Shown here piece by piece: positions 43,681 to 47,068 of a DNA stretch of 47,068 nucleotides. How positions within the stretch are numbered: position 1 is the stretch's first letter; each line of letters opens with the position of its first letter. The DNA comes from Candidatus Harrisonbacteria bacterium. GTDB lineage: Bacteria > Patescibacteriota > Minisyncoccia > UBA6257 > 1-14-0-10-44-23. The DNA lies in NCBI GenBank assembly GCA_023255625.1, contig JAHFLF010000001.1:357120-404187 (forward strand). Direction: 5' to 3'. Under the pieces are notes generated by a model. It saw only the letters and a list, made by a program, of their open reading frames with translations, searched no databases and was not told where the DNA came from. Made by a program: the position numbers and the translations under genes.

Positions 43681-45324
43681 ATGTTCGGCTCAAAAAAGAA
43701 TACAAAATATATTTTCGTGGCGGGCGGTGTGATGTCAGCAATCGGCAAGGGAATCACCGCCTCTTCAATTGCGAAAATTATGCAGTCGCGCGGGCTTAAG
43801 GTTACGGCGCTGAAAATTGATCCGTATGTAAATGTTGACGCGGGCACGATGACGCCGACCGAACACGGCGAGGTGTTTGTACTTGCAGATGGTATGGAGT
43901 GCGATCAGGACATGGGCAATTACGAGCGCTTTCTAGACACCGACCTGACCAGAGATAATTATATGACAACTGGTAGCGTGTATCTTTCTGTGATTACCAA
44001 AGAGCGCAATTTAGAGTATGGCGGTAGAAATGTTGAGGTGGTGCCGGATATTCCCAATGAGGTTATTGCTAAAATAGATGCAGCGGTCGCGGCGACTGAC
44101 AGCGATGTGGCCGTCGTTGAGGTGGGCGGCACGGTGGGAGAGTACCAGAATGTATTATTCCTTGAGGCGTATCGTATTTTAAAATTCCACCACCCCGGTG
44201 ACTGCGCGTTCATGCTGGTCTCCTACCTGCCGGTCTTAAACGGCGAGCTCAAGAGCAAGCCAACGCAGTATGCCGTCAGGTCGGTTAACGCCGCCGGTAT
44301 TGTGCCGGATGTTGTGATTGCACGGTCTGCTTCGGTTATTGACGCTAAACGCAAAGAGCGCATCGCGTTTAATTGCAGCTTGCATGTTGAGGAGATTATC
44401 TCTGCCCCGAATGTTGAGAGTATCTATGAGGTGCCAATTAATTTTGAAGATCAGGGGCTTGGTGAATTGCTTGCAAAAAAGTTGGGGCTTGGCGGTCGCG
44501 ACCGCGATATGAAGGAGTGGCGCGGGCTCGTTGATACAATCCACGCTGCGACCGAGCCAATTAAAATTGCAATTGCCGGAAAATATTTTACAACCGGAGA
44601 ATATGTTCTCACTGATTCATACATTTCTGTTTTGGAGGCGATTAAGCACGCCGCGTATCAGCAAGCAAGAAAACCAGTGATTGAGTGGGTGAATGTTGAG
44701 GATTTTGAAAAGGATCCTAGCCAGCTTTCCAAACTTGATCAGTATGGTGGCGTGATTGTTCCTGGCGGGTTCGGCGATCGCGGCGTAGAGGGCAAGATTG
44801 CCGTTATTCAGTATTGCCGCGAGAAAAAGATCCCGTATCTTGGGCTTTGCTACGGTATGCAGCTGATGGTTGTTGAGTATGCGCGCCATATCGCCGGCAT
44901 GACTGATGCGAATACGACGGAGGTTGATCCAAAGACAACGCACCCGGTCATTGATATTTTGCCGGAACAAAAAGAATTGCTGGCGAAAAAACAGTACGGC
45001 GCTTCAATGCGGCTTGGTAATTATCCGGCAACGCTTAAGCAGGGGACGATTGTGCGCGAGCAGTATGGCAAAGACGAGGTGATTGAGCGGCACCGGCACC
45101 GGTATGAGGTCAACCCGGAGTATATTGCCGAAATTGAAAAAGCCGGGTTGGTTTTTTCCGGCACGAGTCCGAGCCGGAAGTTGATGGAATTCGCAGAGCT
45201 ACCAAAAGACAAGCACCCGTATTTTGTCGGCACGCAGGCGCATCCGGAGCTTATTTCACGGCCGCTGCGGCCGCACCCGCTGTTTGCCGGCTTAATCGCT
45301 GCTGCTATTGACAGGAAGGTATAA
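43681..45324 (+). CDS. pyrG: CTP synthase
   Basis: KYIFVAGGVMSAIGKG, KIDPYVNVDAGTM, PGGFG, GLCYGMQ, ERHRHRYE, QAHPE. Confidence 0.98.
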   Translation: MFGSKKNTKYIFVAGGVMSAIGKGITASSIAKIMQSRGLKVTALKIDPYVNVDAGTMTPTEHGEVFVLADGMECDQDMGNYERFLDTDLTRDNYMTTGSVYLSVITKERNLEYGGRNVEVVPDIPNEVIAKIDAAVAATDSDVAVVEVGGTVGEYQNVLFLEAYRILKFHHPGDCAFMLVSYLPVLNGELKSKPTQYAVRSVNAAGIVPDVVIARSASVIDAKRKERIAFNCSLHVEEIISAPNVESIYEVPINFEDQGLGELLAKKLGLGGRDRDMKEWRGLVDTIHAATEPIKIAIAGKYFTTGEYVLTDSYISVLEAIKHAAYQQARKPVIEWVNVEDFEKDPSQLSKLDQYGGVIVPGGFGDRGVEGKIAVIQYCREKKIPYLGLCYGMQLMVVEYARHIAGMTDANTTEVDPKTTHPVIDILPEQKELLAKKQYGASMRLGNYPATLKQGTIVREQYGKDEVIERHRHRYEVNPEYIAEIEKAGLVFSGTSPSRKLMEFAELPKDKHPYFVGTQAHPELISRPLRPHPLFAGLIAAAIDRKV

Positions 45325-45337
45325 ATTGTGCTATAAA
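45308..45337 (+). promoter_or_regulatory. Putative promoter for the DGR target gene
   Basis: TTGACA-18 nt-TATAAA with a TG extension, overlapping the pyrG 3' end. Confidence 0.5.
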
Positions 45338-45493
45338 ATAAGGAGTTCTTTGAAGGCATTGAGCCGCGTAGTTTGCTTGTTTTACGATTTAAAACGAATA
45401 AACTACGCGGCTATGGATGCCGCATGTTCGCACGCCCAAATCCCGTCATAGCGACGGGTGCGGAGCGTGATTGTTCTCGGAAGGAGACCTGCG

Positions 45494-46114
45494 ATGGGTT
45501 CCCCGACTCTTCAGACATTGGGCCTCTTGTTCCCCCCGGAGATCACGGACGAGCGGCTCGTCCGGTTGCACTCCTCTGGTGCGTTCGCCAGAGTGCTCGT
45601 CCATCCGGACTACGATGCTCTCGCCGCCGATCTGGCCGGTGAGGGTGGCGAGCCCCTGATCCGTCGCGCTCGGCGGCTCACCGTGGAGACGTGCGGTCCG
45701 AAGCTGAATGCGCCCTTCAGTGGGGCGCGGATCCTGACCGATGTCTACGGCGAGGGTGAGGGTTCTTTCGACCTCACCACGGTCGAGCCGTTCCATCTCG
45801 ACACATCGCTCCGGCTCGGTCCTGCTCTCGAGGCCGCGATGCCTCGGCGCACCAAGATCTCCATGGGTGCGCGGCGCAAGCGGTGGTTCGTGAAGAACGC
45901 GAACGCCCGCACGCTGCCGGAGCCCCAGCAGGCCCTGGCCGACCAGTGGCGCAAGGAGAAGAAGTTCATCTTCTTCGGCGACTCGAGCTGGGAGGTCAAG
46001 GACGACAACGAGTACTTCGAGTACGCGTACGACGACGGCAGGCAGTGGGACGACCGCTGCAGCTGGTCCGACGACGGTGTGGACGGCCTCTACTGCGTCC
46101 TCTCCGGCAAGTAG
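45494..46114 (+). CDS. DGR target (variable) protein; C-terminal VR probably in a CLec-type fold
   Basis: AAGGAG-7 nt-ATG 45494; last 41 codons are the VR; GC-rich codon usage. Confidence 0.88.
   Translation: MGSPTLQTLGLLFPPEITDERLVRLHSSGAFARVLVHPDYDALAADLAGEGGEPLIRRARRLTVETCGPKLNAPFSGARILTDVYGEGEGSFDLTTVEPFHLDTSLRLGPALEAAMPRRTKISMGARRKRWFVKNANARTLPEPQQALADQWRKEKKFIFFGDSSWEVKDDNEYFEYAYDDGRQWDDRCSWSDDGVDGLYCVLSGK
45988..46110 (+). repeat. DGR variable repeat (VR)
   Basis: 123-bp ungapped match to 46542-46664 with 13 mismatches, all opposite TR adenines. Confidence 0.95.
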
Positions 46115-46120
46115 GCCCCT

Positions 46121-46221
46121 GGCGATCAGGGTATCTGGCGGTTTTCGGACCGCTGGATCCCTGGTCGCTTGGTTCTCGCATTTCGACCCCGACGGCTCCG
46201 CCTCGGGGTCGTCGCTTTTTT
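46121..46221 (+). promoter_or_regulatory. Two stem-loops downstream of VR (DGR cis element candidate and intrinsic terminator)
   Basis: Hairpin 46121-46169 with a TTCG loop; cgaccccga..tcggggtcg (46184-46211) followed by T6. Confidence 0.75.
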
Positions 46222-46541
46222 GATATATAATTATCTATGGATAGTAGGTGGACAACACGCGGTTTCGTTTGGCAAGGCAGGTTTACCCGCCTTTGGCGGG
46301 CGGGGCTTCGTGTGGCCGAATTCTAGAATCTGTTTGTGCAGAGTTGCAGCGGGTTAGATCGTCAGATCCAGGTAAACTTTCTGCGAGCGTCGCGAACAAC
46401 ATTCTTATACATAACATTATTACTTGGTGCACCGCGCTAGCGCATTATAGATGCGGCATACGATTCAATCCGAAGAATCCGCCAGCTGGCGGATCAACGG
46501 GTGGTGGCTGTTACAGCGCCTTGGATGGCGCAGTGCACATT

Positions 46542-46664
46542 CTGGGAGGACAAGGACGACAACGAGTACTTCGAGTACGCGTACGACGACGGCAAGCAGT
46601 GGAACGACAACTACAACTGGTCCGACAACGATGTGGACAGCAACTACTGCATCCTCTCCGGCAA
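46542..46664 (+). ncRNA. DGR template repeat (TR)
   Basis: AAC/GAC/TAC-rich; 38 adenines, none at third codon positions in the VR frame. Confidence 0.93.
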
Positions 46665-46665
46665 C

Positions 46666-47068
46666 TCATTGGTTATGTGGGCTGCGCTGCGCGTTTCCTT
46701 TTTGCGTTTGGGTGCGCGCAGAATCTTGCTCAACTCTTTTCAACCAACCGCCGAGCATTTTTCCAATTTCATTGAATTTTTCCGAAAGCAGCGCATACTG
46801 TTTATGTCCGAGATCTCCGGTTTCCCAAAGGATCATTAAGAAGAATTTCAGCGTATCGAATTTGGTGTTTGCTTTTTGCAGTGCCGGAAGTTTTTGTTCT
46901 TTTCTAAGATATTGCGCGATAAACATTAATTCCATTGTTTCTATAAACAAAGAATCTATTTTTTCGCCAAGTGTATACTTCGATGGTTTCTTAATATGGA
47001 TAATAATCTCGTGCCACAGTTTGTAAGCGCTAATCAAATGTTGCAAAATACTCAAGTTGCCGTGGGGG
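46666..47068 (-). CDS. avd: Avd-like accessory protein (four-helix bundle), 5' end probably beyond window
   Basis: KYTLGEKID..LKFFLMILWE..QYALLSEKFNEIGKMLGGWLK resembles Avd-family proteins; adjacent to TR; frame open to the window edge (PHGN-LSILQ). Confidence 0.8.
   Translation of the reverse strand, partial: PHGNLSILQHLISAYKLWHEIIIHIKKPSKYTLGEKIDSLFIETMELMFIAQYLRKEQKLPALQKANTKFDTLKFFLMILWETGDLGHKQYALLSEKFNEIGKMLGGWLKRVEQDSARTQTQKGNAQRSPHNQ

Follow-up and report, generated by a model that had tools for sequence, protein, structure and literature searches.

A diversity-generating retroelement in Candidatus Harrisonbacteria with a covarying RNA leader and a GC-rich target gene

The window analyzed here is a stretch of 47,068 nt from the genome of a Candidatus Harrisonbacteria bacterium (G000; assembly GCA_023255625.1, 0.93 Mb, 48% GC, 12 contigs), corresponding to positions 357120-404187 of contig C8 (JAHFLF010000001.1). 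At its 3′-end lies what is very likely a complete diversity-generating retroelement (DGR) of the type found in the candidate phyla radiation (CPR), with the architecture known as B3, for which a mechanism is proposed below; its reverse transcriptase (RT) is found just beyond the window. The cassette is composed, in order, of a target gene with a C-terminal variable repeat (VR), an RNA leader followed by the template repeat (TR), the accessory gene avd, and the RT gene; all are on the plus strand except avd. The principal features are as follows, coordinates beyond 47068 being window-equivalent.

45494-46114, plus strand: target (variable protein) gene, 206 aa from an ATG, taken from the list of open reading frames (ORFs) and its translation
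45988-46110, plus strand: VR, the final 41 codons of the target gene, the TAG stop codon of which occupies 46112-46114
46098-46110, plus strand: GC-rich 13-nt end of VR (TCCTCTCCGGCAA), resembling an initiation of mutagenic homing (IMH) site, located after the last mutated adenine and identical in TR at 46652-46664 (IMH = IMH*)
46542-46664, plus strand: TR, with 38 adenines, none at codon position 3
46666-47055, minus strand: avd, 129 aa from a TTG start, converging on TR, the end of which is 1 nt from the avd stop codon
47056-47068, no strand: start of the divergent avd-RT intergenic region, up to the window end
47069-47078 (C8:404188-404197), no strand: 10-N assembly gap between G runs (GTGGGGG and GGGGGGGGGGGG)
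47079-48135 (C8:404198-405254), plus strand: RT, at least 346 aa readable without a stop codon, with the motifs LGNLTSQ and YADD

A repeat search of the window reveals a single pair of direct repeats, VR and TR, which align without gaps over 123 nt and are 89% identical. All 13 mismatches are located at TR adenines (nine A>G, two A>C, and two A>T); the hypergeometric probability of this outcome, with 38 adenines among the 123 nt of TR, is 4.4e-8. None of the 85 non-adenine positions of TR differs from VR. The repeat search and the mismatch count agree with the initial annotation of this DNA, which had proposed a gapless, adenine-only pair and listed the codon changes AAC>CGC, AAC>CTC, TAC>TGC, and ATC>GTC, each of which is found on comparing the two repeats. 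It had also restricted the TR adenines to codon positions 1 and 2; when TR is read in the frame of the ORF that terminates at 46114, positions 1, 2, and 3 indeed hold 11, 27, and 0 adenines. Twelve of the 13 changes fall in the 3′ 70 nt of the repeat. The homology ends with ...TCCGGCAA, after which VR continues with G and the TAG stop codon and TR with CTCATT; beyond the identical 13-nt end the flanks of the two repeats are unrelated. The IMH/IMH*-like boundary suggested earlier is therefore correct as to where the homology ends, but what is found there is a single identical GC-rich 13-nt end, the difference lying beyond it. Identical IMH and IMH* sequences occur in some DGRs (Wu et al. 2018, NAR 46:11, PMC5758913). 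Genome-wide blastn and tblastn searches with TR and the target revealed no copy of TR, VR, or target beyond the known pair.

The Avd-like gene postulated next to the repeat is real and lies on the minus strand: its product matches the Pfam family bAvd (PF22296) with 51 bits against a cut-off of 40. Its start codon was picked by resemblance to the sequence MSILQHL of a sister cassette (below), and comparison of the protein with PDB sequences gave no match at E ≤ 1. The initial annotation had considered that a genome devoid of any DGR-class RT would tell against a DGR. A search for RVT_1 returned a single match in the genome, at C8:404430-405095 on the plus strand (window 47311-47976), approximately 240 nt past the window end, with 83.1 bits against a cut-off of 29.6. 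The motif [I/L]GxxxSQ is a mark of DGR RTs and reads LGNLTSQ here. The closest solved chain is 8ub7_A (E 4e-37), which we take to be the bRT of Bordetella phage BPP-1, its depositors' name being just "Reverse transcriptase"; the next class, of group II-like and retron-type RTs, matches at 7e-15 or weaker. A tblastn search with the RT recovered 125 phage records, including five of Bordetella phages, all at less than 60% identity. The 10-N gap lies within the divergent avd-RT intergenic region, which is about 40 nt long, and conceals the start codon of RT. In many relatives the match to the RT (P0002) is split into two pieces, residues 7-180 and 205-341, so that the segment between them (residues ~180-205; window-equivalent ~47620-47695) is a variable insertion in this lineage.

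An adenine-only repeat pair, Avd, and an RT of the DGR class are thus all present, and the earlier identification of a DGR is upheld. Architecture B3 is defined by the order TR-(avd)-RT, avd being encoded on the reverse strand, and accounts for 90% of CPR DGRs (Wu et al. 2018, PMC5758913). The cassette order and avd strand observed here are those of B3, so that the cassette has the standard CPR form and belongs to a class already known. With the B3 DGRs described in that study it shares the way in which TR, inverted avd, and RT are ordered and oriented, a small motif-less target with a C-terminal VR, and a host genome of the Patescibacteria/Parcubacteria type; there is no essential difference. 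As a DGR, it is one more case of a very common CPR element, and it is the leader and the GC-rich box around the target that merit follow-up. Of 201 genomes sampled from the same order, 90 contain relatives of the RT at E ≤ 1e-20, in agreement with the earlier statement that DGRs are enriched in CPR. DGRs of the CPR set were reportedly also described by Paul and colleagues in Nature Microbiology in 2017.

The sister cassette (L003, also G153:C34) is found on contig PFBD01000008.1 of Candidatus Harrisonbacteria bacterium CG10_big_fil_rev_8_21_14_0_10_49_15, a member of the Patescibacteria/Parcubacteria group. Its VR and TR pair over 126 nt and likewise have 13 of 13 mismatches at TR adenines. 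The targets are 52% identical (residues 24-206) and the RTs 70% identical, and the layout, RNA leader, and GC contrast are shared. The two differ in their surroundings: the sister cassette is preceded by an ORF of 610 aa and has another ORF 3′ of RT, and here pyrG is upstream and an ORF of 249 aa lies 3′ of RT. They also differ in their peripheral RNA stems and in the avd tail, which is shorter in the sister. Twenty further cassettes were chosen by RT likeness. In 17 of these there is a VR/TR pair in which TR adenines account for 71-100% of the mismatches and VR precedes TR by 380-580 nt; two of the remaining three are ended by contig edges, and one (L038) has no repeat. The latter belongs to the Harrisonbacteria genome G153, which contains three full-length RTs; L038 possesses the RNA motif described below, and no VR/TR pair was found in it. 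Several sub-megabase CPR genomes, including G153, G139, and G128, have three to six matches to this RT each.

Alignment of the cassettes reveals conserved non-coding sequence from the target terminator through to TR. The features of this region are as follows.

46184-46221, plus strand: intrinsic-terminator-like hairpin with T6, the end of the target transcript
46221-46231, plus strand: extended −10-like element (TGnTATATA / TATAAT), predicted promoter of the TR RNA, with a predicted start near 46236-46240
46239-46420, plus strand: 5′ part of the leader, consisting of the GGAUAGUAG block, a hairpin with a conserved loop, and a second hairpin
46421-46538, plus strand: TR-proximal RNA domain, consisting of UACUUGGU, helices P1, P2, and P3 (P3 having an extension particular to the window), and one additional hairpin that is likewise window-specific

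The 5′ part of the leader starts with a conserved GGATAGTAG block, and conserved blocks are also seen against the sister cassette. An alignment of this part from 10 cassettes (A8) contains 21 predicted pairs, 15 of which show compensatory changes. In the TR-proximal 100-120 nt RNAalifold predicts three helices. The closing helix, P1, comprises 12 bp (46427-46438 with 46527-46538) and ends 3 nt before TR, so that VR/TR homology starts at its foot. This pairing is taken from the minimum free energy (MFE) fold of the window sequence alone, which contains the same helices, together with a reading of the sequence. In the training set of 18 sequences (A5), 18 of 24 pairs show compensatory changes and 95.1% of cells are paired. 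Column shuffles give 76.4%, with 0 of 500 attaining the figure observed, and sliding the partner strand by one to three columns gives 30-53%. The conserved GGATAGTAG block was located in 10 of the 18 cassettes, and in these it is preceded by a TGnTAnnnT-like element at a distance of 6-10 nt; an eleventh hit, in L040, is spurious. The element at 46221-46231 was not called by a promoter consensus scan, and its role as promoter of the TR RNA is a prediction.

A covariance model built from this domain (R1) finds one match per cassette and one in the window (74 bits, E 7e-17), where the end of the RNA domain is 566 nt from the RT match. Within the order there are 56 matches in 41 of 151 genomes, and for 44 of these an RT match is listed on the same strand, 363-1034 nt further downstream; across the class 26 of 151 sampled genomes were matched. 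Twenty-eight matches, none of them in the model, form an independent set (A7) in which 22 of 24 pairs show compensatory changes and 94.7% of cells are paired, against 70.9% in shuffles (0 of 500) and 34-53% in slid alignments. The A7 alignment was fitted to R1, which favors structure; nevertheless, both the controls with slid partners and the preceding count, based on MAFFT, indicate that the covariation signal is real. At 24 of these 28 loci, found by RNA alone, TR starts −8 to +15 nt from the 3′-end of the motif, and an adenine-specific VR copy is present 381-505 nt upstream of TR; of the other four, two have too little flank and two have no repeat within 1.5 kb. R1 thus finds TRs directly and marks their 5′ boundary, and could aid the annotation of DGRs in CPR genomes.

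The window carries hairpin insertions of its own at 46478-46493 (the P3 extension) and 46507-46521 (the extra stem before the P1 3′ strand), and other cassettes have different ones, such as the 27 nt inserted into the P2 loop in L027, L028, and L039. Searching window positions 45300-47068 against Rfam 15 gave no family at E ≤ 1, RT-1 to RT-19 included, except for a chance mir-208 hit of 20 bits; five related cassettes gave none at E ≤ 0.1 other than tRNAs and two sub-threshold chance hits. The mir-208 hit coincides with a 23-nt inverted repeat at 45362-45412 (arms 87% complementary, loop of 5 nt), which separates pyrG from the target gene and is probably the pyrG terminator. Our literature search, at the level of main texts, revealed no description of a 5′ leader motif in CPR DGRs, and one may be in print.

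The post-VR region contains one further element.

46118-46172, plus strand: long imperfect GC-rich hairpin with CYYGG-type repeats, 4 nt after the target stop codon and 8 nt after the VR end

Folded as DNA, positions 46100-46215 reach -33.8 kcal/mol (z -5.6), a value equaled by 0 of 200 shuffles. Over the 18 cassettes together, CTTGG occurs 26 times in the 90 nt after VR, compared with 2.1 expected, and 14 of them contain it; the CYYGG arrays have a spacing of about 9 nt, are mostly CTTGG, and lie inside the post-VR hairpin. TR is not followed by a CYYGG-rich hairpin. A GC-rich inverted repeat occurs downstream of VR in 34% of DGRs (Wu et al. 2018, PMC5758913). Because the IMH-like ends are identical in this cassette, we infer that the post-VR hairpin is the likely feature by which recipient and donor are told apart. 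The same CYYGG core is present in the conserved UACUUGGU of the leader.

The mechanism that we propose begins, by analogy with other members of the family, with transcription of the plus strand from the target terminator to avd, which would yield a non-coding RNA of at least ~430 nt, comprising a folded leader of ~300 nt and the 123-nt TR. In DGRs, RT and Avd are known to bind one another. By the same analogy, the RT with Avd would copy TR into cDNA, misincorporating opposite template adenines, and the cDNA would then replace VR, recoding at most ~28 codons of a small protein of unknown fold. The remaining steps are proposed here: the leader would act as an RNA scaffold for RT-Avd, P1 would set the 5′ limit of cDNA synthesis, and the CYYGG-rich hairpin, present after VR only, would distinguish VR from TR.

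The prototype of these elements, the DGR of Bordetella phage BPP-1 (mtd-avd-TR-brt), shares with this cassette the adenine-specific transfer from TR to VR, Avd, the RT class, and a GC-rich VR end followed by an inverted repeat. It differs in that avd is here inverted between TR and RT, the sequence 3′ of TR being antisense to avd instead of a free spacer; furthermore, IMH equals IMH*, a conserved structured RNA is located 5′ of TR, and the target is not a phage tail fiber. The leader offers a concrete idea of how cDNA synthesis might be organized when an inverted avd occupies the place of the BPP-1 spacer. Structured RNAs associated with DGR RTs are known from the RT-10 motif, or Sp RNA, of BPP-1 and from the RT-1 to RT-19 series, others of which were speculated to belong to other DGRs (Weinberg et al. 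2017, PMC5737381); in BPP-1, RT-10 is situated 3′ of TR and before RT, whereas the motif described here is 5′ of TR. The 3′ side of TR contains the following candidate.

46687-46721, plus strand: weak stem-loop beyond the TR 3′-end, within sequence antisense to the end of avd (its 3′ part), a candidate counterpart of the Avd-binding stem-loop

The conserved RNA might instead stand outside the retrohoming machinery, as a regulatory leader (riboswitch-like, or affecting the stability of the TR transcript) or as a separate small RNA. The link between the leader and RT-Avd is one that we infer, and in BPP-1 the elements bound by RT and Avd are located 3′ of TR (Handa et al., bioRxiv 10.1101/2023.10.23.563531). 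Most related cassettes also possess a hairpin 3′ of TR, stronger than the one found here, which could be an Avd-binding stem-loop. Against this, the 3′ helix of the leader lies within a few nucleotides of TR at 24 of the 28 independent loci, and where it could be checked (44 of 56 matches) the motif occurs only with DGR cassettes. BPP-1 itself needs RNA on both sides of TR, its cDNA synthesis depends on the upstream RNA, and its "stop" duplex is formed between sequences upstream and downstream (Handa et al., bioRxiv 10.1101/2023.10.23.563531). The survey of 278 DGRs in the same work took in 40 nt upstream and 100 nt downstream of TR, and within that upstream limit only the 3′ strand of P1 would be visible. 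We consider a role apart from retrohoming less likely than not.

Several findings weigh against a complete DGR working as proposed. The match of Avd to NCBIfam DivGenRetAVD (NF033474; E 1.6e-18, 67 bits) is under the cut-off of 80, and the 10-N gap with its G runs makes the integrity of the RT 5′-end and the correctness of the join provisional. In the 5′ 52 nt of the repeat only one of about 16 adenines is changed, so that much of the "variable" repeat is conserved. R1 placed the 3′ strand of P1 in the window on a neighboring stretch ending at 46531, which is attributed to the window-specific hairpin insertion; the 90 nt after TR fold with a z of only -1.1 in this cassette; and the scaffold and stop roles of the leader are hypotheses. 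Finally, metagenomic contigs of runs X1 (46011-46580) and X3 (45964-46454) carry the VR of the window without difference.

These contigs are assembled Logan contigs from three groundwater runs (X1-X3) of one study, two of which possibly represent the source samples, and such contigs drop rare variants. Those of X2 cover only the first 39 nt of VR, and no variant VR contig was listed among the contigs of the three runs where VR was covered. A 44-nt contig (45997-46040) at about double depth corresponds to a stretch identical in VR and TR. One X1 contig, with eight differences in 44 nt and a joint of 46038 to 46546, looks like a relative or a repeat artefact. In the sister copies L003, L004, and L005 the VRs are identical, and these therefore give no view of diversification.

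Such observations would suit an inactive or decaying DGR, in which the substitution pattern records past homing and the target is no longer diversified. The single VR sequence in X1 and X3, the RT 5′-end hidden by the gap, and the change of just 13 of 38 TR adenines, concentrated toward the 3′-end, all fit such a state. Drift following the loss of homing would, however, have added differences at non-adenine positions, as in L032, where 4 of 26 VR/TR differences are of this kind (some other relatives also have a few), and here there are none among 85. The RT frame is open over 346 aa and contains the catalytic YADD, Avd is intact, and the RNA leader retains every helix. Inactivity is accordingly regarded as improbable. 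The absence of non-adenine differences indicates that homing was recent on an evolutionary scale, and to this extent the suggestion of recent activity in the initial annotation holds, but the read-derived contigs add only a single VR sequence where it is covered. The element is genuine, complete, and probably functional. An ordinary segmental duplication with an adenine bias arising from chance or composition, for which nothing speaks beyond the existence of the repeat, is refuted by the probability of ~4e-8 for 13 of 13 mismatches at adenines, the adjoining RT and Avd genes, and the same pattern in the sister and 17 further cassettes.

The target gene is preceded by a Shine-Dalgarno-like AAGGAGA (45481-45487), 6 nt 5′ of the ATG. 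Neither Pfam nor NCBIfam has a family matching its product, which belongs to a very small family without annotation: five relatives are found among 5.8 billion protein clusters, and three matches among 1.84 billion representatives. One of these three (P0009, 64 aa), rich in Asn, Asp, and Tyr, matches only the VR part, and this database "protein" evidently represents the translation of a TR from a related DGR. Conservation among the family members extends over the N-terminal 165 residues, the final 40 being variable. Comparison of a family profile with PDB sequences yielded no match at E ≤ 10, and the ESM Atlas returned only unnamed Minisyncoccota clusters. The full-length AlphaFold2 model, based upon seven sequences, has a predicted local distance difference test score of 57.8, which is too poor for use. 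DGR variable proteins such as Mtd and TvpA have a C-type lectin (CLec) fold, which the VR-bearing domain of this target may share. Ten target proteins of related cassettes likewise matched no Pfam family; their N-terminal parts are unrelated, and their C-terminal 70-90 residues can be aligned.

A metagenome contig of 2478 nt (L006) encodes a distant, GC-rich relative of the target (P0010, 165 aa, 30% identical) and contains no TR copy. The relative is followed by two small ORFs of 85 and 103 aa with similar N-termini, which, going by their motif, are presumably GIY-YIG-like. The subfamily of this relative serves as the DGR target in L027.

The target gene is 65.5% GC, with a GC content at third codon positions (GC3) of 85.5%, compared with GC contents of 39% in avd, 45.5% in RT, and 48% in the genome as a whole; the GC-rich box spans 45420-46215. 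This is also true for the related cassettes (among L027-L046): in 16 of 16, the GC3 of the target outside VR (0.60-0.93) is above that of RT (0.28-0.58) and that of avd (0.18-0.58; an avd ORF was found in 14 of them). L044 and L045 were left out of this count, the ORF chosen not having VR at its end. The target exceeds its upstream flank by 4-21 GC points in related cassettes, and the averaged GC rises from 0.41 to ~0.60-0.64 at the gene start and is 0.50 at the stop codon, with no gradient between. At four-fold sites the target has less A (0.09 vs. 0.19) and less T (0.16 vs. 0.26) than RT, and C exceeds G.

Three causes of the box were considered and rejected. Avoidance of adenine does not account for it, as A and T are both depleted. 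A gradient linked to homing, such as biased gene conversion proceeding from VR, is not seen either: GC3 in successive quarters of the target outside VR is 0.69, 0.80, 0.78, and 0.78, with sharp edges and no decay from 3′ to 5′. Recent horizontal transfer of a single target gene is at odds with the same contrast in 16 of 16 cassettes having unrelated N-terminal parts. The GC comparison in Wu et al. (2018, PMC5758913) is made there between whole DGRs and their hosts only, and the term "GC content" does not occur in the main text of Roux et al. 2021. Our search of main texts in the literature likewise found no description of target-gene GC enrichment in CPR DGRs, and it may be in print. We put forward tentatively, and as less than an even chance, that the CPR B3 lineage has rebuilt its template RNA machinery around a 5′ leader scaffold and a P1 stop, and that the GC-boxed targets, 10-25 points above flanks, avd, and RT, point to a constraint of unknown nature linking composition with retrohoming.

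GC enrichment may extend beyond DGR targets, since G000 contains 70 islands of at least 62% GC, amounting to 46 kb or 5% of the genome. Several of these islands code for proteins whose N-termini resemble signal peptides, among them two paralogues (C8:276651-277550 and C8:282901-283300).

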